Assembly: GCA_050084515.1 (NCBI GenBank)
Contig: CM114271.1
Span: 10,230,001 to 10,294,000 of the forward strand
DNA length: 64,000 nt
From: Blasia pusilla
Taxonomy: Eukaryota
Reading direction: 5' to 3'
The notes beneath the pieces are model-generated. The model searched no databases. It was given only the letters and a program-made list of their open reading frames with translations, and was not told where the DNA came from. Below are positions 6,175-52,783 of the stretch, in pieces; the first letter of the stretch is position 1; each line of letters begins with the position of its first letter. The position numbers were made by a program, and so were the translations under genes.

Positions 6175-6449
<275 letters not shown>

Positions 6450-7883: not shown

Positions 7884-8527
<644 letters not shown>

Positions 8528-11830: not shown

Positions 11831-11983
11831 AGGGATAACTTGCATTGGAGTAGTTCTCTTCTAGTTTTTTTAACTATGGTTAGTTCTGCAAACTATGGTT
11901 GGAAGTTTATCATAGTTACAAGTCTCAGTTAGTTTACTAGTTACCTCTTTAACTATTCTTGTGAGTTTTGGTTATGCTTAATT

Positions 11984-12130
11984 GTGCACATGGTGTCTTT
12001 GGCCTACCCCTTTGTCTTTGGCTTTGTTGTCTTTATCCTGCACATGGTGTGCTGGCCTACCCCTGTTGTGCTGGCTTGTTGTGTTGTCCTGCTCATAATG
12101 TGCTAGCCTATTCCTGGTGTGCTGGCCTGC
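11984..12130. repeat. Short tandem repeat, about 3 degenerate units of ~50 bp
   Basis: Recurring GCACATGGTGTGCTGGCCTACCCC...TGGCTT unit. Confidence 0.7.
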
Positions 12131-12139
12131 TCAGCCAGC

Positions 12140-13197
12140 CAAAAAATACCGTTAAAAATACCGTTAAGAAAATCTTGGCCGCACGTTATTGGTGGCCAAC
12201 TATGTACAAAGATGTAGGTAACTTTATTCAAAGTTGTGATGCATGCCAAAGAGCAGGTCGACCAACGGCTACCTCAAGGTGGCCTTTGATACCCATCATG
12301 CCGCTAGCGCTACTTGAAAAATGGGGTATTGACTTTGTGGGCCCCATTTCCCCCGCTACTCGCCACATAAGGCGAAAATATATTTTGATAGCTACCAACT
12401 ATTGTACCAAGATGGTGGAGGCGGTGGCTACGCGCAAAGATGATAGTGAGGCTATGGTCAAATTTTTATACGAAATGATTATCACCCGGTATGGTTGCCC
12501 GTTGGAAATAGTAAGCAATCGAGGCACCCATTTTCTAAACCAGACTATTCAGTCTTTAACGTCACACTTTCTCATTAAGCATTGGAAGACCACGCTCTAC
12601 AACCCTAAAGCCAACGGGTTGACTGAAAAATGTAACGGCCTGATCTGCCAGATATTGAATCAATTGATGGTTACATATTCCTATGATTTGGACATGAAAA
12701 TCTCCGCGGCTTTGTGGGCATACCAAACAGCCAAGAAGATTACTACAAAGTATACCCCGTTCTTCTTGACTTATGGCATTCATCCCTTAACACCTATTGA
12801 ATGGGCTTTGCCCACTTATCGAGTGTTGGAAGGAACAAGAAAGGAGGCGATCGGCGAGGTTTTCCAGGGAAGGAATGAGACCTTAGTTGCGTTGGAGGAA
12901 GCACGCACGTTGGCTTTACGCCAGACCAAACGTGTGCAAAACGAACGCAAGCACCAATACGATTGACATCTCCGGCCGCAATCTATAAGCGTTGGAGACC
13001 TGGTGGTGTTGTATGATAACCGTCGGATAAAGTTCCCCGGAAAGTTAAAATTGAAGTGGATGGGACCTTATCGGGTATTGTCCATCTATGATAACGGATC
13101 ACTGCAGTTGGGGACCTTACAGGGCAAATCCCTGCCCACTCGTGTCAATGGGATGCATGTTTGGCGGTATCATGAGCCTCAACCCTACCCGGACTGA
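12140..13197 (+). pseudogene. pol: Gypsy integrase (rve core and GPY/F motif)
   Basis: YWWPTMYKDV...CDACQR, WGIDFVGPI, YGCPLEIVSNRG, YNPKANGLTEK, WMGPY. Confidence 0.95.
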
Positions 13198-15375: not shown

Positions 15376-16649
15376 TGTGATACCCAAACTTTCGTACTTT
15401 TGAAGAAATACATCTGTTTATTCAACGAAGACTTGTATATACATTATGGTTATGATTATTATATATTATTATGGAGAGGAATGAGTTAGATTAGAGTGAA
15501 TCACGAAGCTCCAAGGACAAGACAGAGAGATAGAAAATCAAGGATTTGCCTAAGAGGAGAGGAGAATAAAAAAACAAAGTCTAAACACCCAGCAAGAAGC
15601 TTTGGAAGGACAACAAAGCTCTGTTAAGCTCTGTCTATGAAGTGCTTTGCTCCTGAACGAAGCATAACGAAGCATGAAGAAGAAGAGAAAAAAAATACTT
15701 CGCTCTTGAACAAAGCTTGAAGAACGAAGCACGTGGAACAAGAACAAAGAATGGAGCACTTCGTCTTCAAATCAGGAGAAAGAGCTTCGTCCTCAAGCAA
15801 AGCAAAAGAGGTCCAGACTTATCAGCGAAGCAAAGCTAAGATTGACAGTGATTTCAAGCGACACATAGTTAGAACAGTTATAATAGGAATATGCGCAACT
15901 CTTTGTATCAGATAGGTACTTAAGACAATTTTGTTATGCGGATTCATAGGGATCTAAGGAAAAGAGAGGAGCACCATAAATCTAGGTAGTTACAAATGTT
16001 GAAGAGACACGAGCTTCATCAAGAACGCTTCAAATCTTTGGATTACTCCTACTTTAGAGAGTATTTAAGAAGCATGGAAGTAGCTATCATTATCATTCTT
16101 TTACGAAGTCCTCATGTTGTAGGAATGGTCCGAGCAAGGGAGTAGTACCCTCTTGAGCTTGTATACACTTTTGAAGCTTTCTCATTCTTGATGGAGTAGT
16201 AAAGCAATCATTCATTCATTTTGATGTGCGATGCTTATGTCTGAGTGTTCTTTTTGGGTCGGCAGAGTGAAGAGTGAATCAGGCAAACCTTTCTCATCAA
16301 TGGAATAATCAATATGGAGTTGTAGGAAATCTGTTTGACAGAGAGATGGATTGAATTCCGAAAGTAGGAGAAGCCAGCTTTCATGTTGAGGTCTCTGTGA
16401 GGTTTCTTGATATCGAGAGGAAATCTACCTGAGCGTGCTATCAACTCCACTAGAGAGAATTGAGAAAAGAAACCTTGGTACTAAGAAAGATCCGAAGATA
16501 TTGATGAGACATTGAATATAAATCATACACATTTAAATACAACTATTACAACAGAATTATAATTTCGAACTCTCTTTTCATCAAACAATGATCCTCTTGG
16601 GGATCGAACTCAGTAAACGACTGTAAAATTGAAACTCTTATACATTACA
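15376..16649 (+). repeat. 3' LTR, family D
   Basis: Follows the PPT. TGTGATACC...CATTACA. Matches 10010-11227. Confidence 0.95.
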
Positions 16650-17330
16650 AGGAGCACGAGTCTCGTTCTCCAACATACATTTTGGAGAATGTGCCAATTT
16701 TGGGCAATTTGAGGCCTTGTGTGGTGACGAGTGCACATCAGGTGCGTACATGGATCGTCCTGCCAATGTTGTTGGATGCGGTGAGTGTAGGTTCACAAGC
16801 ACATCATCGGTGTCTTTGGTGGACCAACTTGGTACCACAAGAGGTTTTGTTGAGGGCGTATGAGAGAGTGGAGCGCCCCTCCAATTTGTTGGTGGATTCT
16901 ATTGTGGATCTTGGTTGTTGATCATAGGCAGTAAGGCACGATGATCGACCGCCGTTGATTGTGGTCAAGAGGATTGGCATGCCACGAGTAGCCTTTCCCA
17001 CATTGGTGAGTTTTCCTCCTTCCTATGCATTCAAGGAGGCCGGGCCTGGCTTGGTTTGGGATGACTAGGTACAGTTGGTGGAGCCCAATGCCGATGAGCA
17101 AGAGCGAGAGCAAGGGATGGGATTCCCCACAGGAGTAACTATCGTCCCTCTTAGAGGCATCATGACTTCATGTCTTGGGTCAGGCGATGGACCTGAATTG
17201 CTTGAATTGGATTTAGCTTAGAAGAGGTTGAGCAACGTCGTTTGAGGATGCGACAGATCACAACTACTGTGTTGGTGAGCCCCATGCCTCTCGAGAGGAT
17301 TGAGACAGTGGCTGGGGGCGAGACCTGAGG
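16650..17330 (+). pseudogene. C-terminal half of DNMT3-like C5 cytosine methyltransferase (copy 1)
   Basis: YILENVP (motif VI), SQAHHRCLWWTNL (motif VIII region), VLGQAMDLNCL (motif X region). Collinear with 34050-34690 (-). Confidence 0.85.
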
Positions 17331-17354
17331 AGATTGACATACGTGTTTTGACAA

Positions 17355-20263
17355 TTGCAGTTACATGGGCTGAAGCTACATCTAGGCAAGTGCAAGTTCT
17401 TCTATGGCCAGATTGAATACCTGGATCATACAATATACCCAGGAGGCCTTGGTGTGCAACCGACCAAGGTAGAGGCTATTTCACGCATTCCACGCCCTAT
17501 AGATGTGAGTAGAGTTCGTGCATTCATGGGATTGGCAAACTTCTATCGACGGTACGTCAAGGGTTTCAATTTGATTGCAAAGTCGTTGACCTTGTTGACC
17601 AAGGTGGATCAGAAGTGGCACTGGGGGGATGAGCAAGAGAGAGCATTTCAGCTACTCAAGGACAGATTGACATCTGCATCCATATTGAGGAGACCGATCA
17701 AGGGGCGTCCTTTCCAGTTTCATACCGATTGGAGCATATTGGGGCTTGGAGCTGTGCTCACCCTGCATGACAATGATGGAAGAGAGTTCATGGTGGCTTA
17801 CGCTAGTCGCTCAAATAATGTTGCGAAGGCAAAGTATAGCTTGTATGAGGGTAAGTGCTTGGCTGCGGTGTGGGTTATCGCAAATTTTAGGTGTTATCTA
17901 TCTGCCAAACCCTTTACCATCATTACTGATCATCAACCACTTAAGTGGTTGAGGGATTCCGATAAGCTTATAGGGAAGCTTGCGAGGTGGGCTCTTTCGT
18001 TGCAGGAGTATGACTTCTAGGTGGTGCATGAACATGGAACGCTCAACCAGGATGCAAATGGTTTGAGCCGAAATCCATGCCTGAGTCATCAAGATGCAAC
18101 TAGAGCTTGTTGGCATGGAGAGAGTGATGAGGATTTGATGCCAAGATAGCAGGCCTGAGCCTATTTGGGCTTGTTGCTATGGAGAGCTTGATTGCTGAGA
18201 CTTTGATGGCGAGGTCTGATGGAGAGTCCTTAGATCCAAAGGCCGATCAGGAGATGATAGATGGTAGAGATATTCATGACAATGGAGTAGTCTTGGAGTA
18301 TCTGTGTGCACGCAATGTTGCAAGCACAGTGGGTGTTAGCGAGGGGGATCGGATCCTACAGTGAACCAGACGGTTCAGATGGGAGGGGACACATGTGTTG
18401 CGAGTTTGGGAGGATGGTAGAGTACCTGTAGTGCCTTATCCTTCATAGAGAGCAGGTTTAGTGTGTCATGCCCACAAGGAGTTGGATCATTCCGGAGCGA
18501 AGCAGACGTACAAGTTGGGCAGATAGAGTATTGGTGGCGAGGCATGCAGACTGACGTTTAGCACTTTGTTTCTAGGTGCATGGTTTGTGATCGGGTCCGG
18601 GCATCATTCAATGCTCCGACTCAACAATTGCATCCACTTCCAATCATGGGCTTAGGTTATAGATGGAGTTTGGATTTTGTAGGACCTTTACCTTTGACAA
18701 AGCGCCATAGTCGTTATGTGTTAGTGATGGTCGAGCACTTCTCGAAGTGGATAGAGTTGGTTGCATTGCCTGACAAAGCGAGTGAGGGAGTAGCGTATGC
18801 CTACGTAGATCGAGTGCTGAGTCATTACGGCACACGAGCTGAGGTGTTGACAAACCAGGATAGGTAGTTCTACGGGGAGTTTCAGGCCTTGTATGATCAA
18901 GCGTTCATCAAGCATCCCACCACGTCTCCGCTAGTCCATCCCGAGGCGGATGGACTAGCGGAGTGGGTTGTGCAGAGGGTGAAGAGAGGATTATGCAAGT
19001 ATGGCTTGCAGAGAGGTCACCTAGGAGATTGGGACCTCCTGTTTCTATGGTTGGCGATGGGATACAGATTCAGCACGTAGGCATTCTTAGCGTCTTTCTC
19101 ACCGTACTTGCTACTTTATGGCCGAGATCTAGATTTACTTACGGCCATTCGTTGAGATGTTGGTGAGGTATTGACCCTTGATGACCCTGATGTATGGATG
19201 CGAGCATGTTCTCAAAGGGCTGAGTTGTTTTGGAGAGTGATGCCCATGGCGTTTGAGAACTTGGCGATTGCGCAACATCGGGATATGTTGAGTTATGCGA
19301 CTATTAGAGGAGGTGGTTATCGACCTACTATCCAGAGGTTTCATCAAGGAGACTATGCCTACTTGTAGCAAGCTGCTCCCACGACGTTGGATGTGATTGC
19401 AGGGTGCACTATCTTGAGAATGCGTGAGATTTTGCCATCCGATGTTCTCTTATTAGAGGGACGCCATGGTATGGTTTGAAAGGACCATGTATGTAACTGT
19501 GGGCCACATCATCTTCCGAACATTGACGGTACAGTTGATCTGAGAAGAGTGGTAAGAGGAGAGGAAGAGAGGAGAGAGGAGAGAAGAAGAGAGGAGAAAG
19601 GAGAGAGGAAGGTATTGCCAACCCCTAGGGCTCTCTTGGTTTGAAGAGAGTTTTCGACAGGTTGGAGAGAGGAAAGTTTTGACAAGTTGAAAAAGCAATC
19701 TTTTTCCAAAAAAAATTGGTGGTGAAAAAAATTTGATTTTTTTTTTGTAAATTTTTTTTAACGTTTGCAACCCATCGAAGTCCAACGGGTTGCAAGTTGC
19801 AAACGTTAAAAAAAACCCAAAAAGATTATTTTTTTCCTTAACAATAAAATAAAATAATAATAAACAAAAAAATTGTAACCTGTCAAATTCCAAGGGGTTG
19901 CACTAAGTTTCCTTGCTTCAAAAAAATCTCCAAAAACATTACGCACTTATTATCCATAATCTTCATATTTTTTGAAGAGAGTTTCAGGTTTTAGGCCCTT
20001 TGTGCCTTTTTTTTTAAACTAGACTCTCCTCTCTTCCTCTCTTCCTCTCCTCTCTTCTTCTCTCTTGCCAAAATACTAGCCCCCATTGGTCCGAGCTTAG
20101 CCGTAGTTCCTGCATGCTTGCGATGTATGTTGTGTGGTTCTGGCCATGGTGCAGCCACGATGCTAGTCTGTGATGGATGTTCGAGAGGATGGCATGTGGC
20201 ATGTGTGACGCCACCTCTCAGTAAGGTTCCTCACGGACGATGGATGTGTCCCAGATGTACATA
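17355..20263 (+). pseudogene. pol: Partial RT, RNase H, integrase and PHD finger of copy 1
   Basis: GKCKFF..IEYL, VRAFMGLANFYRRYVKGF, TDWSILGLGAVL, TDHQPLKWL, WSLDFVGP, HPEADGLAE. C-terminal CMLCGS...LVCDGCSRGWHVACVTPPL...WMCPRC. Confidence 0.92.
19545..20085. mobile_element. Non-autonomous TIR insertion (Mutator-like MITE) in the integrase-PHD linker
   Basis: GA-rich left end is the inverted match of the CT-rich right end. Imperfect 10-bp flanking duplication TTGATCTGAG / TTGGTCCGAG. The host reading frame resumes after it. Confidence 0.6.
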
Positions 20264-21359: not shown

Positions 21360-24300
21360 CCTTCAGTTGGGCACATGATATCTTTGGACATACATGCCAC
21401 TCATTCGTGTCGGAAATGCTTCTCCCTTCAAAGTTTCCACTTGTAAGGAACCATTCTCAAAGATTTCCAAGACTCGATAGGGTCCCATCTAGTTTAGTTT
21501 CACCTTCCTTGGGAACTTAAGATGTCGATTGTCATAGAGTAGCACCAATCCTTTCTCGTACTGATTGTGGTCGGAGGTTCTTCTCATAGCGTCTCTTTCT
21601 TTGTGCTTGGACTATCTTTGTATGGCTAAGAGCAAGATGTCTTGCCTCCTCCAAAGCTACCAAGTCTTCGTTCCTCTTTTTGGTGATGGCCAAATCTTCA
21701 TCGTTCCTTTCTTCTTCTAGAATCTGGTAAGTGGGCAAGTCCCATTCGATTGGAATGAGGGGTTGAATCCAATACGTCAGATAGAATGGCATGTACTTGG
21801 TAGTGACCTTCTCCGCTGTTTGGTAGGCGCAGAGTGATGTAGGGATCTTGGTATCCCAATCATAGGAATAGGTGATAATTAGGCAGTTTAAGATCCAGAA
21901 AATAAGCCCATTGGACTTTTCTGTCAACCCATTGGCTTTGGGGTTGTAAGGTGTAGTCTTCCTAGGCTTGATAAGGAAGTGGTCGGTCAACATCTCAACC
22001 ATTTTTTTTAGGATAGCCATATCTAGTAATTATCATCTCATATAGAAACTTGGGCACTGCCTCATTGTCATCTTTGCGAGTAGCCATTGCTTCCACCATT
22101 TTGGTACAATAATCTGTAGCAACTAAGATATATTTTCTGCGCGTCTGCCTAGTGGCTCGTGAAATAGGTCCCACAAAATCAATGCCCCATTTCTCAAAAG
22201 GGGCCAAAGGAAGGATAGGAACGAAAGGCCAACGAGAAGTCGTTGTTGGCCTTCCTTCTCTTTGACAAGCATCACACTTAGGGATGAAGAGCCGGACATC
22301 TCGATACATTTTTGGCCACCAATAGCGTGCGGCTAGGATCTTCTTAATAGTATTCTTGAGTGCATAATATCCTCTTGCATCCTCCGAATGCATAGCAGCA
22401 ATCACTCGAGGAACTTCCTCTCTCTCTAAGCATCTTCGGTATTCTTCGTCCGTGCCAAGCTTGAATAGCACATCATGGCAAAGCTTATAGGGCCCTAACT
22501 TATGTAGAAACAGTGTCCGTTCTTCCGTTATCATGAGGGTTGGAAATCGGAGAGTGATGAGGAAGCGCATAATATCTCCATAAGCGGATCTTTGCAGAGT
22601 CTTCTTGCTGATTAGGAACAGATCTTTGTCTCGGAAGCTATCTTTGAGAGTCTTCATGAGATCAGCCTTTAGCTTCTTTAAGCGTGACAAGAAGTCCGCG
22701 TTGGTATGTATCTTTCCTGCTCTTGTTACCACGTCAAATGTGAATTCTTGCAATAGTAAAATCCACCAAGCAATCCTCCCTAACAAATCCGCTTTCACCA
22801 CTAAGGCTCGAAGCGCAAAATGGTCGACATGGAAAACAACCGTGTACCCCAGCAAGTAATGTCGGAACTTCTTGCAGGCAAAGACCATCCCCAAGGCTTC
22901 TCTCTCCCTACTAGTGTATTTTTGTTCCGTAGCCTCAAAGTTGGCGACCTGCATAGTATATTTGGGAATCCTTCTTCTTTGTTTCATCCAACCGGCTTAG
23001 TACTACTCCGATCGCAAACAAAGAAGTGTTTACATACACCTAGAATGTCTTCAGCCAATCAAGAGGAAGAAGCACAAGATCTGTCATCAACGCCTGCTTC
23101 AATTCCTCAAATGCTGCTTGGCAGGTGGGAGTCCATTCCCACTCCGTTGTCTTCTTTAGCAGGGTAGTCAACGACTTTGCCTTTATGGCATAATCCTTAA
23201 TGAACCGGCGGTAGTACCCTACATGGCCCAGGAATCCTCTTAGCTCACAAAGACTCGTGGGGGCTTCCAACTCCGCAATTATCTCCACCTTAGCCTTATC
23301 CACTTTGATACCGCGCGAGGATACTCGACGCCCCAACAAGATACCCTGCCTCATTGCAATGTAAGATTTCTCCAGGTGCAAAGATAGTTGTACTTTTCAG
23401 CAGCAAGTTAAGGTTAGCTTCAACTTCTGTAATTGCTTGGCTTCAAAACTAAAGACACAAAAGTCATCCAGAAAGATCTCTAGGAATCTTCATAAGTAGT
23501 CGTGAAAGATAGATATCATCATTCTTTGGAAGGTGGCTGGTGTGTTGCAAAGCCCAAAAAGGCATAACTCAATAGGCAAAAGTGCCTCAATCGATAGTGA
23601 AGGTAGTCAAGGCCCGGTCCTTCTCTCTGATGGACACTTGATTGTAACTTGAATATCCGTCCAAAAATGTATAACATTCATGATCGGCCACTTTAACTAA
23701 GATAGTATCAGTAAATGGCAGTGGGTGATGATCCTTCATGGTAGCTGCATTCAGCTTCCGGTAGTCCTGATAAACCTTGATCTTTCTTGACTGCTTCTTT
23801 GGTACAAGGACTAGGCCAGATACCCATTCACTACTCATCACAAGATATATGACTCTTGCTTCCAACCGCTGGTCAATCTCATCCTTAACCATTAAAGAAT
23901 ACTTGGGATTCAGCCCATACCGACGCATTCGCGCAGGCGTTGTCCCGGGTTTAAGATCAATCCTATGTTCTCCATACCTGGATGGCACTCCCTTCATCTC
24001 ATCCATAGTATAGGCAAACACGTCAAGGTACTCTGCAAGTAAGGTCTTATATTGTGAATGTTCAGAAGTAGACAGATCTGTAGATAGACGTAAAGCCTTG
24101 GTGTTGGTGAAAAAGACTTCTTGGTAGTCCTTTTCCTACACCATCTTTTCAATAAACTGATATGTTGTGAGCCCAACTCGCTCTCCCCCTGGGGAGGGCC
24201 TACTCTACTCTAAGTGTAAGAACTCTTCATCTATCTCATAACATTCCAGATAGCAAATATAGGACGAGGACTCTATGTCGGCCGCCGAGCCCTGATCCGA

Positions 24301-29240: not shown

Positions 29241-29849
29241 TTGTAGAGCTGCCATAGCGAACGTACGAAGAGCAAATTTTGAAATTCTTGGTAACTTCTT
29301 AGTTGAGATAGAAAAGTTTAAAAATATTTCATTATTTTGGAAAGAAAAAGTAAAACTTAGGATCTTGAGGTTAAAGTGAGTGGAAATTTTATTTAGTGGA
29401 TGTTGACTCAATATTTATGGGGCTTAGTGGAGTATAAGCCAAATGTGAATAATTTTAGCAGTTGATCCTTAGTTTAAGGAGTTAGTGGAGTGGGAAAAAA
29501 CAAAATACATTCAATTTTTGAGTAAGGTTAAAATAGATCTATCTTTATCCACATGAATGATATCGTAATTACTATTGAATTTCATCGTCCATTCAAGCCG
29601 TTCTTACTCCGTATGTTGGCCACCGTCGACGACGTTCTTCACCGTTGTTGATTGGACAGTGACCTTTTGGATTAATGGGGTCGGAGTTTTCTTTCCGCTC
29701 TACTATGCATAGTGTTTTGTAGCCGCCTGACAATCATCAGCTACTCAGATGGTTGATGGAGTCTGAAAAGCTTACACGGAAGCTTTCTAGATGGTCACTC
29801 TTATTGTAGGAGTACGATTTTCAGGTTGTCCATCGCCTAGGACATCTGA

Positions 29850-30004
29850 ACTAGGATAAGGATGGGTTGAGCCGTAGCCCATGTACGAGCTTGAGCGATG
29901 CAGCTAGAGTGAGGTGGCATGGTGAGAGTGATGAGGATTGGTGTCGGGTTGGCACGCATCTGCCTATTTGTGTTTGTTGGCTATGTCTGGTCAGCAGGAG
30001 GCAT
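29850..30004 (+). pseudogene. DNMT-Gypsy copy 3, left part (RNase H end and linker); host of copy 2
   Basis: DGLSRSPC...RWHGESDED..GWHASAYLCLL matches GLSRNLC...RWHGEVDEE..SWHASAFLCWL (31880-32428). Confidence 0.85.
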
Positions 30005-30585
30005 TGTCGTGCCAATCCACATCATCATACAACATACATTGCTGACATACCATACTCACATACATACATAACATAGACGAGAGCATCCACAAACACAAGT
30101 GTACCACAACTGAAATCCGTGAAAGACCTATTGTCATAAAACATGTATATAATCACATACAATCGAGCCAAACCCACTCCACGATGGGAGAATCTAGGTC
30201 GAAGCTTGTAGGAAACACCATAGCCAAGAGCTCTACTCACTACCAAGGCTAACTCCCAACGCAACAGGCTCAACTCAAAGAACTAACTGTTCTTTGAGTG
30301 CACTCCACCTTATATCTTCCAACCTACGAGCGGGCCCTACTGGAAAAGTCACCCTCAACTGAGTAACCCCCAACCCTATGTATGAAATTGCATCTCTACC
30401 TAGACACTGCGGCCCTACATAAGGTATGGCCTCTACTAGCACACTATACTCTACGACATAATCCGTATGGTCATTACGGTGTCGATGAATCCACATCATC
30501 ATACAACATACATCGCTGACATACCATACTCACATACATACATGACATAGACGAGAGCATCCACAAACACAAGTGTACCACAACT
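30005..30585 (-). repeat. B1-A2-B2 3' terminal repeat block of copy 2
   Basis: 30014-30111 is nearly identical to 30488-30585. 30111-30475 is nearly identical to 39313-39676. Confidence 0.95.
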
Positions 30586-30758
30586 CGCCCCCCTAACTGG
30601 CGGTTAGGTCCCTCTAACTCCCCAGGTAGCCCTATACATCTACTACATGCTATACACCTTCTTGGGTGCACGAATCAGAAGGCCGGGTGCCAGGTTGCCC
30701 CATCGTTAGTCGCACATCTGTAATCCATATCATGCAAATATCAAGTCATCTACCTCTC

Positions 30759-32000
30759 CTAAGTACATCGAGGACAAACCCACCTTCCAGTAGGAACAAC
30801 ATCCATACGTGGAGTCAAACACATCATGTGCCAACACCTAGAACACCGATCACACACCAACATACGGGCTGAGTTACCAGCAGACCCACACAACATGCAC
30901 CTCAAGCTAGCTCGTATCATGGCTAAGCTTGGGTCAACAGTACCATCCACATTTGGAAGATGACATGGCGCACAATTACGCACATGGTCCTTCCAAACAA
31001 CTCCATCACGACCCTCCAACATGAGAACTCCATAAGCTAACACCTCGCGCATTCGTAAAATAGTGCGGCCTGCCGTCACATCCAACGTTGTCAGTGCAAT
31101 CTGCTGCAAATAGACGTAGTCCCCCACATGGAACCTACGAATCGATGGTCGATAACCTCCACCCTGAATGGTTGCATACCGCAATGTATCCCTATGTTGA
31201 GCAATGGCAAGATTCTCAAAGGCTGTTGGCATAACTCTCATCCATATCTCTCGGTCATCAAGGTTCACCACCTCACTAGACTCCCAACGAATTGCTACTG
31301 GCAAGTCTAGATCTCGGCTATATAACAGAAAATAAGGTGAGAAGGAAGCCAAGGATGCTTGGCGACTGAACCCATACCCCATGGCTTACCATGGCAACTG
31401 AATATCCCAGTCTCCAAGATGCCCCTTATGCAGGCCATACTTGCGCAATGCCCTCTTCACCGTCTGAACCACACGCTCAGCCAAACCATCCGCCTTTGGA
31501 TGATCTCAAGACGTGGTCTAATGATCAATCAACTCCTTGTCACACAAGACGTGAAACTCACCCTGAAAATCTGTACCCTTGTCGGTCAGCACTTCAGCTG
31601 GTGCACCAAAATGACTAAGCACTCTATCAAGAAACGCATACGCCGTTCCCTCACTTGCCTTATCAGGTAATGCCACCAACTCATTCCACTTGGAGAAGTG
31701 CTCCACCATCACCAAACATATCAATGATGTCGTACAGTCAACGGTAACGGTCTCGCAAAGTCCACACTCCAAAGGTAACCCAAACCCATAATAGGCAAGG
31801 GGTGTAATTGTGGTGTAGGGGCATTGAATGATACCCTCACCCGATCACAAACCATACAACATGACACCAACTGCTGCACCTAAGTATGCATGCCACGCCA
31901 CCAATACTGACCAAGGAGTAAGCTATACGTACGCTTTACCCCAAAATGTCCCAACTCCTCATGGGCATGTCGCACAATGCGCTCTCTCTGAGCCAAATGC
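30759..32000 (-). pseudogene. pol: DDE integrase with C-terminal PHD finger (copy 2)
   Basis: HAHEELGHFGVKRT...YWW (HHCC), VEHFSKW, VLTDKG. C-terminus CMLC-x9-CDRC-x4-HMMC-x14-CPRC (Cys4-His-Cys3). Confidence 0.93.
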
Positions 32001-33816
32001 GGCACTACTCGTACTCTACCATCCTCCCACACACGGAGAATATGTGTTCCCTCCAATCGATACCTCTTAGCACGTTGAAGAACACGATCTCGCTCCTTGG
32101 CACTCACTATGCCTGGCACCCTACTGGTCCATAGGAACTCCAACACCAACGCATCATCATGAATATCACGCTGATCCGTACCGCCACCTCCAACCTTAGG
32201 ATCTGAAGGCTGGCCATCTACCCTCTGACTAGAGTAAGATATCATGTGGTCCTCCATACTAGAGTCCACCCCTAACCAACATAAAAAGGCGGATGCATGC
32301 CAACTTGGCACCATCTCCTCATCAACCTCGCCATGCCATCTAGCCCCAGTTGTATCCTCTTGGCTAGTACATAGGTTCCTACTCAACCCATGAGCATCAA
32401 GGTTGGTTACTCTAGGTCTATGTACCACCTGGAAGTCATACTCATGTAAGATAAGAGCCTACCGTGCAAGCTTCCCTGTAAGCTTGTCAGACTCCATTAA
32501 CCACTTGAGCAGCTGGTGATCAGGAACAAGGGTAAACTGTGTGCCAAACAAGTAGCACCTAAAGTGTGCCATAGCCCACACTACTGCCAAGCACTCTCCC
32601 TCATATGAACTATAGCGTGACTCTGCTGCATTATTCGAATGACTTGCATAGGCCACCACAAACTCCATGTGCTCATCATCATGTTGTGTCAACACCGCTC
32701 CAAGTCCCAACCTACTCCAATCAGTATGTAACTGAAATGGGCGCCCTCTGATAGGTCTCCTCAAGATAGGCGCCGCCACCAACTAGGCCTTAAGCTCCAT
32801 AAAAGCTCTCTCCTGATCATCTCCCCAGTGCCACTCTTGATCTGATTTCAGCAATTGGTTTAAAGGCTTTGCCATAGCACTAAATCCCTTCACATACATC
32901 CGATAGTAGTTCGCCAATCCCATGAATGCTCGAACTCTACTCACATCTACCGGACACGGAATAAGTGTAATAGCCTCCACCTTTGCTTGCTGAACTCCCA
33001 AACCACCTGGATAGATCACATGACCCAAGTACTCAACATCCTCATGGAAGAACTTACACTTTCCTGGATGCAAACGTAGACCATGAGCTTTCAACCGCTC
33101 AAACACCATCTGCAAATGTATCTGATGCGCCTCCACCGTGTTACAGAATACCAAAATATCATCAATGTAACACCAAACAAAATCCAACCCTGCTAGGATC
33201 CTGTCCATCACTCTCTGAAACTCGGCAAGTGCATTCTTCAACCCAAAGGGTAAGAATTTCCACTGGTACAAACAATCCTTGCTATGAGAGTTGACACCCC
33301 AAAATGTTGTTTTGGCCTTGTCACTCTCATGAATCGGCAATTGATGGTATCTCGCCGAAGATCCAAAATCTGAAAATCTTTGCCTGTCCCACCACATCAA
33401 AGATCTCCTCGGTGTAGGCATGGCATACCTATCGCCTTGGTTTGCCGATTGATAGGACGGTAATCTCCACACATCCGCCTATCCGTGTAGTTGCCATGCA
33501 TATCCTTTTTAGCGTGATGACATGTGGTCGATGCATACTCTCCATGTGACAACTCCACTAATCCAGCCTCCAAAAGGTCCAACGTCCTACTCTGAATCAG
33601 GTCCCTCTCCATATCACTATATCGGTAGGGACGACGGAAGATTGGCGTATCACTAGCCAAATCAATCCGTATACCGGGTCCAACCAGAGCACCCAACTCC
33701 TTCATGCTGAAGGCAAAACAACTCCTATAAGCATGTAGGAACTGTGTCAAGCATCGTTTCTCACCTCCCGTAAGCTTGGGCCCAAGTAATGGCTCCCAAG
33801 TCTCCTCCACTAGCAC
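32000..33816 (-). pseudogene. pol: Reverse transcriptase and RNase H (copy 2)
   Basis: RRMCGDYRPIN, LPFGLKNA, YIDDILV, GKCKF, LHTDWSRLGLGAVL, YSSYEGECLAV, DHQLLKWL. Confidence 0.95.
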
Positions 33817-34049
33817 ACTAGAGGAGAGGGCGATGCCATTGGTCTTTCATAACCCCTCACAAGATGGTACACCCTTAGCTACACCATCATCTGAGCAAAT
33901 AACTCCTCCACCAGCATGAGCAACCAAATCCACATGCCCAGCCATCACATCCCATTTATTCCAAGGATACAAAATCCTACTCTCCTCGCCCCCAGCCGAT
34001 GCCTCTACCGTCCCGGTAGCCATCAAGCTCATTACAAGGGGTGGAAGAC

Positions 34050-35040
34050 CCACAGACATAGTCCGAAGTCGACGCTGCTCGGCCATACCAAGACTCAAAA
34101 TCCAAGTCAAACAATTCAGATCCATGGCCTGACCCAACACATGACGTCGTGAAGCCTCATAAATGGAAGCAACCGCTATCACACCACTAGCAAATCCCAT
34201 CCCATGCTCACTCTCATCAGCGTTAGGCTCCACCAACTGTCGCACATGAGAATCCCATACAAGCCCGGGACCACCTTCCCTGTAGGCATGTGACGAGGGA
34301 AAACTCACCAATGTGGGTAGTGCCATCCTAGGCTAGCCCACACGGTTCACCACTGCCATGAGTGACCGATCAATAACCCTCACCACTTGAGAAAGTCGCC
34401 CAGTATCCAAGATACTATCCACTGTAAGGCAAGGATCCCGCTGCACTACATCATATGCTCGACGTAGAACCTCCCTAGGCAACAAGTTTGTCTACCACAA
34501 GCATGGATGATGTGCACGCGAGCCAACTCGCGCTGCATCCAACAACACCATTGGTCCAATCCAAGACCGCACCTCATGAACACTTGCCATCATTTGGGTC
34601 CGAGTGTCACCCAACAATGGAACATTCTCCAGAATGTAAGCTAGAGCATGTGCCTCATGAACCTGAAGATGTCGTAACATCGTAACATCTCCCAAAACAA
34701 TCGAGACCTAGGGTCGTGTAATCCCTCACCACGACCAGCACGTGTATGACCCTGACATGGCCATCCAGCAATCACCAGATCCACATGATCAACCCTCTCA
34801 AGGTCCTCCGCCCCCAACAATGCGATGTGTGACGGCAAAGCACGCTGGTACCCACAAATAGTTGATGGCGGCAACAACTCATGATGTCTCCGCATCAACT
34901 GACCAATCTGTCGGGATGAGACTCTCTGGGCCGTCTCATCTCGCTCCACATACCCGTATCTCCGCACAGAAATACCGGCCTGCAACAATGCAGCCAAACC
35001 AATGCTTATCCCACCAAAGAGATCTAACACACAAATGCCC
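34050..35040 (-). pseudogene. DNMT3-like C5 cytosine DNA methyltransferase domain within the retroelement polyprotein (frameshifted)
   Basis: Motif I ICVLDLFGGI (~35008-35036), motif II YVE, motif IV DLVIAGWPCQG (PCQ 34752-34760), motif VI YILENV (34621-34629), motif VIII region AHHPCLW*TNL, motif X region RRHVLGQAMD. Confidence 0.92.
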
Positions 35041-35456
35041 TCCGGCGGATACTGCCATACAATGGGTGTAGTATCCAAAGGGGATAACCCAACTTGATCA
35101 GAAGTAGGAGTCCGCCGTGGGGCCTCCTCTTCCTCGTGAGGTATAATAGCCTCACACCAAGCCTCCTGCCGTAGTGCACCGCCTAAACTCCAAAGTGGCA
35201 CATCCAACGATGAGGATGCCACTGCTGCAAAAATAGGGACCTCTTCTACCTCCTCATGCACAGGAGAATCCATAGCAGAAACATTACCCTCCAAAAAGTC
35301 TCCTGGCCAAGGGACTACTCCACTAAAACCAGCCACAGATACTAACACTATTGGGGAAGACCCTCCCGGTCGAGCCCCATAAATAAATCTCACAGGAACT
35401 TGGCTCATACGTCCATCCCCGGACTGCCAACCAGGTCTATAAGACGCTGTCTCAGT

Positions 35457-35882
35457 CTAGTAATCCATCTGAAAACCCATCGGGTACAATATTGCTCCTC
35501 CAACTAGTACATCATACGACTCAGCTGATGTGACTACAGCAGATATTCCCAACCGGGAGCTATCAGTCGCATGATCTGGTCTCATCTGTACAGAAAACTT
35601 CTCCCGTGTCATGAATTGAGACCTATCATTGGCTCCTCCAAGTGATGTTTGAATCTGGAATGGGCAAGGCTCAAGCTCTGACCTCTGAATATCCAAACCA
35701 ATACATGCCGCTTTTCCCAACATCAAAGGTTGGGCACCAGAGTCTAACAATACTCTATCTGGTCTATACACCTGTCTTGTAGGACTCACCAATCGGAATA
35801 TCCCACTCCGGTTGTCCAACATACATAGACCAGGTGTAAGCCTCTCACGATCAATGGCTGGTCGGGCTGGTAATGCATCCAT
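35457..35882 (-). pseudogene. Retropepsin-like aspartic protease (copy 2)
   Basis: VLLDSGA catalytic motif and YDVLVG. Confidence 0.9.
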
Positions 35883-37889
35883 CTTCGCCGCTGCTGCCTG
35901 TCAAGTAGCACTAGTACTCAATGCTACACCTGACATAGAGGGTCGCTCCACCGCAATACCCTCATCCACCTCAGCACGTGTAGCAGTAACACCCCCACGT
36001 TCACACAACGTGGCGGCTAGGTGAAATACAGGAGCTAAGTCAACTCCTAAAGCCATCAGCTCCATGGCCGAAAACAATGGGGATCCGAACACTGAAGTTG
36101 CCATCCGCTATACTGCATTGGATGCTGCATCCGTGTCTACTACACGCGATGTAGATGCCTCAATCTCCACTTTCGGCTCAATAGGCTGCATAGGAACCAT
36201 GGATGGAGTCCTAAGCACCTCAGACAACAAGAATGACTGGGGAAGCCTAGCCTGCCTTTGAGCCTCACCCCTCTGTGGGTCCAACTCCACAGTAGCACCA
36301 CGTGGTTTTGACGTTCAAGTGGCTCCTCTCGTAACTGCAGCCGATGCCTCAACCTGTGCTGCACTTGCCATATAAGAGAGATCATCCCCTCCATAAGAGA
36401 TGGAAGCCCTTGCTCCCGAATCTGATCTATGCTGGATACCAGCCATAGTAGCCAACTTCTCCTCCAACTGCTCAATCCTGGCAGCCATGGCTGACTCTGT
36501 TGTAGTGGTAGGGGTAGCCACCGTAGGCTCCAACCACTGGTCCACCTCTACCACCCCTACCACCTCCACCACCTCGGCCTCTCGGAGCTACTCCACCACG
36601 GCCGCGGCCTGATCTCAACTCTGGATGAAGATCAAAGCAACGCTCTCAAGGATGATCTGGTCTCCCGCAATGATCACATTGAGTTGGGTCCGACTGAGGC
36701 CCATCCTCTAAAGTCCGTCTCCCATCCTCTTGGGGACAAAACTTCCTAACATGATCACCTCCACATGTCCAACATGACTGTCCTTGCTGCGGGGCAGCAA
36801 ATGAAGGCAATGGTCTCTACGCAAGTGTCCCTGTAGGACTGGCGACCGAGGTCGTGTGTACCCCCACGACTCCCACTACTACTACCACCACCACTACTAC
36901 GAGAGGCGTGAGGTGGGTGCTGAACACGAAGTAGTAGTTGTATCCCTACTAAATGCGGATGTCACCACTCTCTCCTTCACCATGTTAAGCTCAATCTTCT
37001 CAGATAGAGCAAACACATGGGTCAATGTGGGTGAATCATCACTCATAAGTGTAGCATCACATACCCTGCGGCGCAACTCCCTGTCCAAGATCCCATACCA
37101 AAACTCGACTGCTTGAGCCTCAGTCACACCCTGGGTGACTGAAATCAAACGTCGCATACGAGTGTATGCCTCACGAAGACTCTCACCAGTCTTTCGCTCA
37201 AATTCTTGAAGGCTCCTCAACTTCTCTGTCTTCACTCCCTGATAGTTCTTCTTCAACCTCTTGAAGAACTTTGCAACGGGGATAAACGATGGTGGGGCAC
37301 TAGTACCTCCACTAGTACCCCCACTGGTACCTCCAGTGGTACCCCCACTCCGGCTCGTACTCGTACCACTCAACGTCGGGCTGGCTAGCATAGTAGGAGC
37401 ACTACTACCAATACCACCATGGGTGATAGACACATAGCCTGGAGACCAATATTGTCTCCACGCCTCAATCTCAACAACATGGTCCTTCCTAAACTCATGG
37501 TAATCATCCATGGGTGGTCCCTCAAGTCTTTGAAACAACCCCTTCCAAGCCAAGAAGGGTGTAAACAACGTGGCGTTCCGCAACATTTGCATATCACACC
37601 ACGTATCAAACTCCTGCATGAAGTCCTCCAACTCAATGGTGCCCACTGCACCCAAGTATCTTCGTGGGCCCTTCATGGCCCCATATATCCCGTCCATGTC
37701 CCAAATCAATGGAGCTGCAACACTCGTTAACAACGTAGAAGACTCGGTGTTTGGAACACCCTCGTCCTCCTCTTCATCAACCGTCGAAAGTGGAAAAGGT
37801 AGCCGATACCTAAATCCACTCCGTGTGAAACCACCACTATCCGCACCACGGTCCCCAACCAGACCACCCGACAGCTCCGCGATGACCAA
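35883..37889 (-). pseudogene. gag: gag with two CCHC zinc knuckles and linker (copy 2)
   Basis: GESLREAYTRMRRL (MHR-like). CWTCGGDHVRKFC (~36735-36774) and CDHCGRPDHP*ERC (~36637-36678). Confidence 0.85.
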
Positions 37890-39301
37890 CGCCGATGCCG
37901 CACCACCACCAAATTATCACCACTAAGTAACCAAGTGACGTCGATGTCGCTATACTATTCTAGCTCTACTAGCTATGGATGTAGGCAACCTAACCTGTCA
38001 TCACCACAAGAAGCCTCCCAGAGTCTACTGGTCATCACTCCAACCTCACTACCGGTAGCACACAGGAGTAACACTACTCTCGAAATCAGCATCAACCCTA
38101 ACAATGGGCGCCCAAGCAAAAAGCAATGATGGAGGGGATCCAAACAAAGGAAGTCCAACGACAATCCTCCAATCGCAAATGGAAATCAAGGTAACACAAT
38201 CCACCAAACGTGGCGCCCCCTGAATCCACAAAACCCACCACACAATCCTAATGCAATAGCTACTCCACCGCGGGTCGGTGACGTGCTAGTCGAACTCGCA
38301 GCACCTGAAAATATCACCTGCATGGAGAGGCTACACCGTACTATGCGCTAGAGGTCCATCAACCAAAAACCTGAGATGCATAAAGCGCCTAACACCTCTC
38401 CGAACAGCACCAAATGAGCTACAACAGTGTGTACACTGGCATAGTTAAGAACTCAGCAGTTAAGCGTCTTCCAGGCAGAATAGCCCAAAGATGGGTGACC
38501 AGTTATACAACACTCAATCCACAAATCCTGCAAAAATTGCCTCACGCCCAAGCAAGCAAGCTTGCTTGCTTGCTCCTTGCTCCTTACTCCGCCTCTCACG
38601 CCCACTCGCCCTGAGCTACCACGAGTTGCCTCAAAGCCTCCAATGGGATAGGAGTCTCCAACAATGAATGAGTCACCAACCAACCAGCCCCTCCGATCCG
38701 CTGTCCACCATAGACCTTGAGCTAGTCCGCGAAATTTCGATCAGCAATTACTCCAAAAATCCTCAACCAAAATTGAATATGTTTCAATCGGAATTCAATT
38801 GACCACCATAGCTATCTCTCCACAAAAAATCAGCTACAATCAAGCTCTGTACTCCGAGCTAAAAATCAGACAAACTTGCTGTCCATACACCTCCAGAATC
38901 GCAAATCCGACAGCGCTTCCGCCAAGTTTCATGCACGCAGAAACCTGCAACGCTCCACACACTCAAGCAGATAGCTTCACATGAGATCACAATACAAGTA
39001 GCAATAGGAATCTCTCACCCTATCTGGATGAACTTTAACAGAGCTTCCGCACTCCAAGCTCTCCACATCAGAAAACCGTCGAACACGAACCAGAATCTTC
39101 AATCCTTGATAACTTCCAACTCCCTTGACGAAATCCGGCGATCTAAAGCATGTTGGAAAGCTCTTAGCAAGGCGCTTCTTTCCCAACCAACCACACACTA
39201 GATTCACACCTCCAACATAGGCCACAATCCACGGCTGAGTACATAATCAGCCCTAACCAGATCCTATTGATCTACAATCGAAGCTACCATTGATCTACTT
39301 C

Positions 39302-39313
39302 AGTTCTTTGAGT
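39302..39313 (-). promoter_or_regulatory. Putative self-priming primer-binding site of copy 2
   Basis: Minus-strand ACTCAAAGAACT at the end of A1 is the exact complement of AGTTCTTTGAGT (39486-39475) inside A1. Confidence 0.65.
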
Positions 39314-39676
39314 GAAATCCGTGAAAGACCTACTGTCATAAAACATGTATAGAATCATATACAATCGAGCCAAACCCACTCCACGATGGGAGAATCTAGG
39401 TCGAAGCTTGCGGGAAACACCATAGCCAAGAGCTCTACTCACTACCAAGGCTAACTCCCAATGCAACAGGCTCAACTCAAAGAACTAACTGTTCTTTGAG
39501 TGCACTCCACCTAATATCCTCCAACCTAAGAGCGGGACCTACTGGAAAAGTCACCCTCAATTGAGTAACCCCCAACCCTATGTATGAAATCGCATCTCTA
39601 CCTAGACACTGCGGCCCTACATAAGGTATGGCCTCTACTAGCACACTATACTCTACGACATAATCCGTATGCTCAT
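39313..39676 (-). repeat. Terminal repeat A1 of copy 2
   Basis: Near-identical to 30111-30475. Confidence 0.95.
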
Positions 39677-40694
39677 GAAAACATCCACTCTATGAGGGAC
39701 GTTGGATGGTGAGTCCTCAGATCCAGATGCTAGTGAGGATTCATCAGGGACTGGAGACATCCACGATGATAAGATGGTCTTGGAGTTCCTGCGTATTGGT
39801 GTCTTAGCAAGCACGGTGGGTGCTAAAGAGCAAGATCGAGTCCTATAGCAAGCCAGGAGGTTTAGGTGGGAGGGTGGATTGAGTTGGTGGAGTTGGTAGC
39901 AGTTCTCCAAGTGGATTGAGTTGTGTTGTGATCACGTACTGATAGATCATCGTATGACTTCTTGAGATCATCGGGAGGCAAATGGTTTGGCAGAGAGAGT
40001 TGTGTAAACAGTGAAGAGAGGATTTCACAAGTATAGACTTCATAGAGGACACTTGGGAGATTGGGACCTACAATTTCCGTGGTTGGCGATGGATTACCGC
40101 TCTGTCGGCAGGCATCCTTGGCATCATTTTCATTGTATTTCTTGCTCTATGGGAGAGAGCCAAAGTTACCATCGTCGATTTGACAAGATGTGGTTGAGGT
40201 ACTTGACCTTCATGATCCAAACATATGGGTACAAGAGTGTTCTCAACGGGCTGAGTTCTTTCAGAGAGTCATGCCAATGGTGTTTGAGGTACGGGACTAC
40301 GCGTGGAGGAGGCTATCGTCGAGGGATTCGGAAATTTCATCCTCAAAATTATGTCTACCTATAGCAAACAGCGCCGACAATATTGGACGTGATGGCAAGA
40401 CGTATTATTGTGCGAGTACGAGAGACTTTACCTTCAAGAGTCCTTGTTCTAGAGGGTCATGATGGTATCATTTGGAAAGATTATGTGCGTAATTGTGCGC
40501 CATGTCATCTTCCAAACGTGGATGGGAGGATTGATCCAAGCTTGGAAGTTGTTCTTGAAGGCCTGAGATGCATGTTGTGTGGGTCTGCCAGAGGTGCAAC
40601 CACCATGCTAGTTTATGATGGGTGTTCTCGAGGATGGCATATGTCATCTTTCACGCCGCCTCTTGACTTGGTTTCTCAGGGACATTGGCTTTAG
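39677..40694 (+). pseudogene. DNMT-Gypsy copy 3, right part (internally deleted integrase and PHD)
   Basis: DIHDDKMVLEFL, GHLGDWDLQFPW, VRNCAPCHLPNVDG..CMLCGS..DGCSRGWH. Confidence 0.88.
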
Positions 40695-40698
40695 GGTT

Positions 40699-41562
<864 letters not shown>

Positions 41563-51165: not shown

Positions 51166-52783
51166 CTAGTGAGTATAGGGAAATGTCGTAACACCTTCAA
51201 AGGCACTCAACCTCTCCAAAGTATTTGCAACTCCTTCAACAAGTGGAGCTAAGTATATATCTAGATTTTCATAAGTCACTGATTCCTTCCCTAGAATTAT
51301 AAGAGTCAATTGGAGAAAGAACTTTCTAGTACATAACCAAGGGGGTAAGTTGTAATTCACCAAAAATATAGGCCAAGTAGACCACACACTATTTTTGTCA
51401 CTAAATGGATTGACCCCATCTAATGCCAAACCAAGCCTACAATTTTGGGCTCATTCATAAACTCTGGCCATTGAAGATCAATTCCTCTCTATTGCTTAGA
51501 ATCTCCAGTGTGCCTCACCAATCCGTCAGTACTCTTATTCTTGGATGTCCATGTCATAAGTTCAACAATAAATATGTATCTATACATACGTTTCAACCTT
51601 GGAATTATAGGGAAGTGTCGTAACACCTTCATAGGCACTTTACCCTTCCCCATTTGCTTATACCTTTGTGACATGCACTTGGAACATGTATCCAAATCCT
51701 TGTGAACACCTCAAAACAACATACAACCATTTGGACACATGTGAATCTAAATGTAATTCAATCCAAGCTTTATGACAAGTCTTTTGGCTGCATAATGGCT
51801 TTTAGGGATATGGTTGTCCTCAGGTAGGACTTGTTAGCTAAATAATTTCAAGACCTCGTCAACAACCACATTTGGGATGTTATGAGCTCCACAAATATTC
51901 AGAAAATCCATTGTGAATGCTAGTTTACTAATCCTACTTCCAGGGAATAAAGGGAAACATGCTTCTCTCAATGCAATCGAGTCTGTTGCACAATCTTCCT
52001 TACCACATCCTAATCTAGAATCTTCGTCTCCTATCTCAAAGGGACTATCATCAACATCTTCTTGTGGAGCAAATTGATCTTGATCAAGGGGTTCCTCATT
52101 GCCTCCCTGATCAAATTTATGAAAGGCTTTATTGATCATTCTATGAACATTTATATCTTCATCAATATCTGTCGCACCTGATGTAGGATTGCTTATATTA
52201 CATTCAATCCCTATGGTAGGACTATCCACATGCACACTTCTATTTTCAGATCTTCACCTTCATTCGTCATCTAATGAATCATACTCATCGGTGTTTCTCC
52301 AAATCCTTTTTTGAGGAAACCTATTATACATGATGAGATGTTTCTCTATGACATCCAAAACCATCAATTTCATCCCTTTGCATTCATTACATGGAAATCA
52401 AAGCTTCTTCCACCCTAAGTTCCTTACAATCTTTTTTTCTCTTCACCACAACTTTTCATCATGTGATGCAATTCGTTGTGAATGATCAAGATTCAACTTT
52501 GGCTTGGTCTCATGATGTTGATTACAAATTCTTCCCATGGCTTGCATTTTTTTTCGTATGAGATATCCTTAACAAGAAAGGTAATTTATCTGCTTGTGAC
52601 GATTACCACATTATGATAATACTCTAGCAACAACTTCTCATGTTGATTTTCCCTTTCTTCAAGTGTAGTACGTGAACCTGTTCTACCCATAATCAGCCCC
52701 AAGGGAAGTTTCCAACAACACCCGACATGAACACAAATTAAATGAGATAATGAGATTCAATAGATATTGCATCTTCCCTAATC
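51166..52783 (-). pseudogene. CACTA (En/Spm) TnpD transposase relic (Transposase_21-like)
   Basis: LALDGVNPF...STWPIFLVNYNLPPWLC..K...L.LII.G...DIYLAPLVE, KVLRHFPIIPRLKRMY, IHMCPNGCMLF. Confidence 0.92.

Follow-up and report, generated by a model that had tools for sequence, protein, structure and literature searches.

The window analysed here is a 64,000-nucleotide stretch of the Blasia pusilla genome (GenBank assembly GCA_050084515.1, contig CM114271.1, positions 10,230,001 to 10,294,000 of the forward strand, numbered below from its first letter), and it holds three related copies of a long terminal repeat (LTR) retrotransposon. The second of these, copy 2, lies on the minus strand and carries a PHD finger at the C-terminus of its integrase together with a C5 DNA methyltransferase (PF00145) encoded further upstream. 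Thus, the combination of a chromatin reader and a DNA methylation writer in one element, which an initial annotation had proposed from the letters alone, is indeed present in copy 2. The coordinates of the features are collected in Table 1.

Identity and position of the PHD finger

The initial annotation had placed the finger at 30759-30905, and a profile search bears this out. In the 208-residue open stretch that ends there, Pfam PF00628 matched residues 163-207 over the full profile (positions 1-47) with an E-value of 4.1e-10 and 40 bits, compared with a curated cut-off of 24 bits. All eight zinc ligands of the Cys4-His-Cys3 (C4HC3) type are in place, with the spacing C-x2-C-x11-C-x2-C-x4-H-x2-C-x14-C-x2-C. 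The C-terminal letters of this open reading frame (ORF) are translated as ...NCAPCHLPNVDGTVDPSLAMIRASLRCMLCGSAGNSARMLVCDRCSRCWHMMCLTPRMDVVPTGRWVCPRCT*, and the tail of the 208 codons reads ...NCAPCHLPNVDG...RCMLCGSAGNSARMLVCDRCSRCWHMMCLTPRMDVVPTGRWVCPRCT before the stop, with one codon between the last ligand and the end of the frame. The tryptophan two residues before the seventh ligand (W202, in GRWVCPRC) is invariant in the family alignment. When all six frames of the window were scanned for the C4HC3 pattern, only two matches were obtained, one in copy 2 and one in copy 1, and none was obtained in 50 shuffles. The other Pfam matches to the 208-residue ORF were variants of PHD only, and neither an ADD profile nor a family of the chromodomain was among the matches up to E 1. 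By its profile matches, the finger of copy 2 is a canonical PHD finger and not an ADD domain.

The finger is placed right after the SH3-like integrase C-terminal domain, which agrees with the integrase C-terminal location, the chromodomain position, given in the initial annotation. Just upstream, copies 2 and 3 carry the CAPCH motif, which had been described as conserved, and copy 1 reads CGPHH instead; of 151 related proteins, 121 contain the form xAPCH, 110 of them exactly 25 residues ahead of the first PHD cysteine. A structure model of the 208-residue stretch had a mean pLDDT (predicted local distance difference test) of 82, with values of 91-95 over the SH3-like barrel and the finger, and it contained strands at 90-140. 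The finger is also in the same frame as the integrase catalytic core (rve), with in-frame stops between them in the read-through translation.

The element around the finger is classified as a Ty3/gypsy LTR retrotransposon of the Gypsy-DNMT3 lineage, because it shares with this lineage the domains, a DNMT3-like DNA methyltransferase (DNMT), homology with Klebsormidium nitens and the layout of split repeats. Its domain order is gag, DNMT3-like methyltransferase, (protease), reverse transcriptase, RNase H, integrase and PHD, in which no Pfam match marks the protease. The Pfam match of the C5 DNA methylase falls within 34641-35456 on the minus strand, and motif I (FGG), motif IV (GWPCQG) and motif VI (ILENV) can still be read in this region. 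When the methyltransferase of the intact relative P0190 (1516 aa) was compared with solved structures, DNMT3A, DNMT3B and DNMT3C were the best matches (E about 1e-6) and accounted for the first 29 of the 34 PDB matches. P0190 was also found by tblastn to be collinear with 35036-30765, from the methyltransferase to the PHD finger, and since this alignment crosses three frames and several stops, copy 2 is dead but nearly full-length. The direct repeats are split and follow, in the orientation of the element, the layout A-coding-B-A-B, which differs from two simple LTRs; the two 98-nt B repeats are 98% identical. No target-site duplication was assignable to copy 2. As a compositional feature, G clearly exceeds C on the sense strand of the Gypsy-DNMT3 copies (GC skew of about 0.17-0.28 at 30001-40000 and 16001-20000 of the window), and in copy 2 T also exceeds A.

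Table 1. Features of copy 2, of the related copies and of the surrounding sequence (positions of the window).
Feature	Position	Strand	Evidence or remark
PHD finger of copy 2, span of the eight zinc ligands	30765..30899	-	translation, Pfam PF00628, pattern scan, fold model
Stop codon directly after the PHD finger of copy 2	30759-30761	-	
CAPCH motif, end of the integrase C-terminal SH3-like domain	30960..30974	-	25 residues upstream of the PHD finger
Open stretch of 208 aa, integrase C-terminal region and PHD finger	30759..31385	-	stop-to-stop ORF
Integrase catalytic core (rve), in the PHD frame	31518..31844	-	Pfam E 1.4e-7, 32.1 bits (cut-off 32.6)
Integrase H2C2 zinc-binding domain, in a different frame	31886..31993	-	PF17921 E 4.8e-10; frameshift near 31870
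RNase H (32459-32782) and reverse transcriptase (32783-33478)	32459..33478	-	RT_RNaseH E 5e-30, RVT_1 E 2e-25
DNMT3-like C5 cytosine methyltransferase region, two frames, with stops	34075..35036	-	PF00145 E 9.4e-7; tblastn with P0190 and P0253
Gag-like region, weak	36897..37913	-	Pfam Retrotrans_gag E 0.0022, under the cut-off
5' repeat A1, 364 nt	39313..39676	-	96% identical to A2
3' repeat block: B1 30488-30585, A2 30111-30474, B2 30014-30111	30014..30585	-	
Copy 1, related element: DNMT part, reverse transcriptase/RNase H, integrase, about 525 bp unmatched, intact PHD finger	16661..20261	+	
Copy 3, fragment: integrase C-terminal part and decayed PHD finger only	39900..40691	+	
RNase H fragment of a related element, beside the 3' end of copy 2	29733..29985	+	
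Other transposable element remains	11965-12966, 21995-24135, 60685-63099	+, -, +	
Inverted repeat pair, 788 nt, 10.5 kb apart	40775-41562 / 52016-52803		97% identity

Conservation, domain orders and transcription of the family

The finger is conserved far beyond the window. In an exhaustive profile-free search, the 208-residue stretch gave 4233 matches at E<=1e-3, including 217 at E<=1e-30, and the C4HC3 pattern stood at the matching place in 139 of the 150 best matches of this search. When both match lists were combined, the pattern was kept in 204 of 236 relatives, and 150 of these 204 have the ligand spacing of copy 2, which is the commonest one. Besides the ligands, residues characteristic of the CLxPPLxxxPxGxWxCPxC subtype are conserved as well. 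All named relatives are from green algae and plants (Marchantia polymorpha, Calypogeia fissa, Sphagnum, Klebsormidium nitens, Haematococcus, Chromochloris, Tetrabaena and Cymbomonas), and the closest is that of M. polymorpha, with 78-79% identity.

This conservation bears on the question of whether the finger is a non-functional passenger, such as an exon captured from the host, a pattern that arose by chance or an artefact of annotation. The copies in the window are decayed, and some Marchantia gene models with this PHD finger are annotated as ordinary host proteins, both of which would suit a passenger. However, the pattern occurs in the window only at the element copies and never in the shuffles, its position is kept, and its spacing is shared by 150 of the 204 pattern-positive relatives, in relatives named from green algae to bryophytes, and the listed PHD differences in transcribed copies (see below) hit non-ligand residues only. 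We consider a passenger very improbable.

The methyltransferase is found in the same range of hosts. The DNMT stretch of the window matched 34 proteins, of which 19 are M. polymorpha gene models and 4 are from Calypogeia or Sphagnum, and PF00145 is precomputed in 14 of the 19 Marchantia models. On the basis of these matches, the source is probably a liverwort, and the Gypsy-DNMT3/PHD family reaches the bryophytes and is abundant in liverworts, where it is partly annotated as host genes. Many Marchantia gene models (proteins P0174, P0175 and P0259-P0281) are pieces of the family, examples being Mp_7g09570 ('PHD-type domain') as well as Mp_4g09160 and Mp_8g17980, both with PF00145. Among them, P0175 (612 aa) matches both the ORF of the DNMT region and that of the integrase-PHD region of the window, which suggests an internally deleted copy. 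Marchantia gene models of the PHD type or the DNA methyltransferase type that are in fact transposon pieces can mislead counts of host chromatin genes.

Two domain orders were read from Pfam on 17 proteins and from local searches with Pfam-verified DNMT cores. In the type A order, DNMT-(PR)-RT-RH-IN-PHD (PR stands for protease, RT for reverse transcriptase, RH for RNase H and IN for integrase), which is that of the window, K. nitens, P0190 and P0223, the methyltransferase precedes the reverse transcriptase. In the type B order, RT-RH-DNMT-IN-PHD, which was found in Cymbomonas and in many metagenome proteins, it stands between RNase H and integrase. A DNMT core was found in 58 of the 236 relatives, and all but two of these (56 of 58) match the PHD segment as well. 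In the 71 proteins that have both RNase H and H2C2, the gap between these domains is bimodal: it measures 102-263 aa in 33 of them and 552-804 aa in the other 38. For a quick maximum-likelihood tree of the integrase-to-PHD region, 145 rows were used, and proteins without an H2C2 match or with an H2C2-to-PHD span outside 300-650 residues were omitted. In this tree the window and P0190 fall in an 18-row clade (support 99), which lies within a 37-row group that includes P0253 of K. nitens (Shimodaira-Hasegawa-like approximate likelihood ratio test, SH-aLRT, 89), and a separate group of 104 rows (89) contains all type B rows; the deep branches are only moderately supported. Across the aligned relatives, the PHD finger stays on the integrase throughout the lineage, and it is the methyltransferase whose position shifts.

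In the type B relatives, the PHD finger is followed by an additional conserved domain, about 220 aa long (71 local matches at E<=1e-5; for example, residues 1317-1651 of P0014), which is not present in the window. Pfam gave nothing for this domain even at E 10. Its structure model (pLDDT 91.5; predicted TM-score, pTM, 0.90) has the fold of a class I S-adenosylmethionine methyltransferase, and the closest structure was that of M.TaqI, an N6-adenine DNA methyltransferase (Foldseek E 2.7e-5, TM 0.45), followed by METTL5 and the M subunits of type I restriction-modification systems. Leads from the Atlas were phage and bacterial MTS/N6_Mtase clusters. If the model is right, type B elements would hold a C5 methyltransferase, a PHD finger and a second methyltransferase-fold domain, a kit like that of the EpiLTRs (see below) with PHD replacing the chromodomain.

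The family is also transcribed. Three stranded RNA-seq runs, labelled as coming from the organism of the best-matching DNA data, were mapped on copy 2 with reads of 92% identity or more, and 3919, 3751 and 4180 reads per run were obtained, spread over the whole element. In the integrase-PHD bins, the depth was 117-172 and the first mate was on the plus strand in more than 90% of the reads (for example, 162 vs 0.4); DNA contamination is therefore disfavoured. The RNA corresponds to the sense strand of the element if the library is of the deoxyuridine triphosphate (dUTP) type, in which the first mate is opposite to the RNA. Only 30, 25 and 41 reads per run reached 99% identity or more with the window copy, so the RNA derives from related copies other than this one. 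Among the read differences listed, the best-supported ones within the PHD finger change non-ligand residues only, and one difference restores the G-W-H of the family in place of the C-W-H of copy 2. In addition, RNA joints were seen from 31231 to 32206, with 9 additional letters inserted (16, 31 and 46 reads in the respective runs), and from 31149 to 37611 (3-5 reads). Internally deleted members of the family appear to be transcribed, and the ends of the joints are not intron-like.

Putative histone-tail reading and the proposed role of the finger

Compared by sequence, the solved PHD fingers nearest to that of copy 2 are those of CHD4, KMT2C/D, DPF2/3, KDM5A/B (PHD1), ATXR5, WSTF, PHF21A, BAZ2A/B, UHRF1 and AIRE, and the matches to cellular PHD readers ranged from E 1e-16 to 1e-6. 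Similar proteins were obtained by comparing folds: the PHD finger of ATXR5 with H3 (TM 0.85, root-mean-square deviation (rmsd) 1.8 A), that of BAZ2A with unmodified H3 (rmsd 1.3 A), that of UHRF1 with the tail of unmodified H3 (rmsd 0.9 A) and, lastly, BHC80 (rmsd 1.0 A). Several of the nearest PDB entries have 'unmodified H3' in their titles, and fingers of the ING, BPTF or TAF3 type were absent from the top 60 sequence matches and from the fold matches listed. The readers of unmodified H3 (ATXR5, BAZ2A/B, UHRF1, BHC80/PHF21A, PHD1 of KDM5 and CHD4) are alike with copy 2 in PHD subtype and fold, and the difference is that the finger of copy 2 sits on a retroviral-type integrase and that its H3 binding is putative. 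In addition, readers that hold trimethylated lysine 4 of H3 (H3K4me3) in a cage have a tryptophan two places before the zinc histidine. The family consensus before this histidine is G-W-H, and there is no aromatic residue two residues before it.

Because of these nearest solved fingers and the lack of a cage aromatic, we judge tethering to nucleosomes with unmodified H3 to be the likeliest role of the finger. On this reading, which we hold to be fairly probable from the sequence and the fold model, the PHD finger would tether the complex of integrase and cDNA to nucleosomes whose H3 is unmethylated at K4 and would bias insertion to silent chromatin. In working elements, the finger attached to the integrase-cDNA complex would bind the N-terminal tail of H3 in its K4-unmethylated state, and this binding would direct insertion away from active promoters and into silent chromatin rich in transposable elements (TEs). 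The PHD finger would play the role that the chromodomain plays in chromoviruses. The analysis establishes what the domain is, where it lies, that it is conserved, that a methyltransferase is encoded with it and that the family is transcribed; histone binding, the particular mark read, an effect on integration and any cooperation with the methyltransferase are inferences.

Several points weigh against tethering to K4-unmethylated H3. First, some readers of H3K4me0 have an acidic residue just before the first PHD cysteine; copy 2 has S-L-R there, and in the family D is found at position -2 in 67 of 150 sequences, so that the mark read may differ between sublineages. Second, the fingers of KMT2D and the DPF proteins, which are among the nearest solved ones, bind other tails or acetyl marks. 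Third, the initial annotation had taken the TE-only neighbourhood as support for targeting. The neighbourhood is rich in TEs and fits targeting, but it is weak evidence, since selective retention of insertions explains the same picture equally well. Fourth, the window copies are pseudogenes and the RNA derives from other family copies, and the sense-strand call rests on the assumed dUTP-type library.

The first two points also fit a different role, in which the finger recognises something else, for instance methylated H3K4, a different histone tail or a non-histone host factor, and serves different insertion sites, nuclear import or stability. The PHD is a versatile domain, tandem modules with other specificities (DPF, KMT2C/D) contain some of the nearest solved fingers, and the residues before the first cysteine vary across the family. 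However, the best 60 sequence matches and the listed fold matches include no H3K4me3 cage reader, the cage position has no aromatic residue, and the top fold matches among single domains come from complexes with unmodified H3. We regard another mark or partner as rather unlikely.

The presence of the methyltransferase leads to another alternative, in which the PHD finger serves the element's own DNMT3-like enzyme. Within an uncleaved polyprotein or a complex, the finger would direct or permit de novo methylation in chromatin where H3K4 is unmethylated, as the ADD domain does in animal DNMT3. The enzyme is of the DNMT3 type, and the co-occurrence of a DNMT core and a PHD finger in one polyprotein, in two domain orders and in nearly all relatives with a DNMT core (56 of 58), is in line with such a partnership. 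However, the finger is always on the integrase C-terminus and never beside the DNMT, and Pfam sees a plain PHD rather than an ADD domain. In the type A order of the window, the DNMT lies upstream of the reverse transcriptase, probably on the far side of the unmapped protease, so that cleavage would probably separate it from the integrase-PHD part. Many relatives show no DNMT, a count which truncated gene models make unreliable. A finger that acts for the methyltransferase is, in our estimate, unlikely.

Tethering of the integrase complex to K4-unmethylated H3 can be extended to the whole lineage, and we put this extension forward only tentatively, as a doubtful proposal. From prasinophytes to liverworts, one old Gypsy lineage would keep a reader of the unmodified H3 tail on its integrase and a DNMT3-type writer, to which a large subclade would add a domain with an amino-methyltransferase fold, and the element would pick H3K4-unmethylated chromatin and methylate its own new copy there. 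If this is true, the family would be a transposon-borne analogue of ADD-DNMT3, and retrotransposons encoding methyltransferases would persist and be transcribed in land plants. The pairing with a DNMT3-type enzyme echoes the logic of ADD and DNMT3, although the finger of copy 2 is not an ADD domain. The family shows how a mobile element can pair a histone reader with a DNA methylation writer. It is also a natural case in which to test whether the integration of a retrotransposon can be steered by a PHD finger, in the way that chromodomains act in chromoviruses.

Known systems and the neighbourhood of copy 2

PHD-bearing LTR elements, Gypsy-DNMT3 elements and retrotransposons with a reader plus a writer are all known already, and the idea is not as new as the initial annotation had assumed, given the published cases of LTR elements with PHD fingers and of reader-plus-writer retrotransposons. 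The PHD-bearing LTR retrotransposon REM1 of Chlamydomonas is said to go back to work by Perez-Alegre in 2005. In C. reinhardtii, PHD is described as an accessory domain that is common in TEs (PMC8557442), and REM1 and Gypsy-7a_cRei are PHD-bearing LTR elements of Chlamydomonas (PMC8557442, PMC9940879). Compared by description only, Gypsy-7a_cRei is, like copy 2, a Gypsy element of the green lineage with PHD as an accessory domain of Pol; in contrast to copy 2, its PHD lies between RH and INT, and the passages describing it do not mention a methyltransferase (Craig et al. 2022, PMC9940879). More generally, PHD fingers have been reported as widespread in retrotransposons (PMC6673714), and fusions of PHD and chromo domains with reverse transcriptase and integrase have been catalogued across eukaryotes (bioRxiv 10.1101/2021.11.30.470311).

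The closest known system is KnitGypsy-Dnmt3 of K. nitens, which has split repeats of the DIRS type together with Gypsy domains (de Mendoza et al. 2018, PMC5890265). As in copy 2, a DNMT3-type methyltransferase lies in the polyprotein upstream of the reverse transcriptase, and the repeats are arranged as A-coding-B-A-B (PMC5890265). The K. nitens protein P0253 is a direct homologue, with 37-50% identity in the DNMT region and a place in the same integrase clade; the host differs, being a charophyte there and Blasia pusilla here. The only K. nitens record found is incomplete and stops about 60 residues short of the expected start of the PHD finger, and the term 'PHD' has no occurrence in the main text of PMC5890265, whose figure and supplements may show one.

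Two other systems resemble copy 2 in their logic. Chromoviruses are Ty3/gypsy elements whose integrase bears a chromodomain at its C-terminus (Gao et al. 2008, as given in papers citing it). Like copy 2, they have a histone-tail reader right after the integrase C-terminal domain, which presumably steers them to silent chromatin, but the reader is a chromodomain instead of PHD and the mark is H3K9me, whereas the unmodified H3 N-terminus is expected for copy 2. EpiLTRs are LTR retrotransposons with a chromodomain, DAM and a DNMT4-related enzyme, and the preprint that describes them names 'streptophytes (Gypsy-DNMT3)' as a separate, earlier case (bioRxiv 10.64898/2026.05.21.726589). As described in that preprint, they share with copy 2 the presence of a chromatin reader and DNA methyltransferase(s) in a single LTR retrotransposon, and they differ in using a chromodomain with DAM and DNMT4-related enzymes in place of PHD with a DNMT3-type enzyme.

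In the literature that was searched, we found no explicit statement of an integrase PHD finger in Gypsy-DNMT3 elements (leaving aside the figure and supplements of PMC5890265), no report of the abundance and transcription of the Gypsy-DNMT3/PHD family in liverworts and mosses, and no report of two alternative DNMT positions in this lineage. Methylase-encoding transposons are stated to be absent from land plants 'such as tracheophytes' in PMC6338049, which names only tracheophytes as an example and in which liverworts and Marchantia have no occurrence.

The other two copies in the window are both on the plus strand. The PHD finger that the initial annotation had recognised in copy 1 is confirmed at 20124-20258, with all eight ligands intact and 58% identity to that of copy 2 over 66 aa. 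Between the CAPCH-equivalent motif and this finger, copy 1 has a stretch of about 525 bp (19540-20063) without a counterpart in copy 2, which is probably a later insertion. The decay that had been noted for the finger of copy 3 (about 40569-40691) is real as well: two ligands are lost (C to Y and C to S), and an early stop comes before the last CxxC. Copy 2 is flanked by related fragments on the plus strand, RNase H on the left and the integrase-PHD part of copy 3 on the right, and it may be nested in an older related element. The order and strand of the fragments fit such nesting, with about 0.46 kb missing and no target duplication found.

The remaining TE sequences are two Gypsy integrase/reverse transcriptase stretches of another family and one Copia element (gag_pre-integrs, RVT_2), and no ordinary host gene was found among the window ORFs tested. 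Arrays of an 8-bp unit occur at 8151-8392, 40660-40841 and 6305-6453, two in direct and one in inverted orientation, and one of them adjoins the decayed PHD finger of copy 3.

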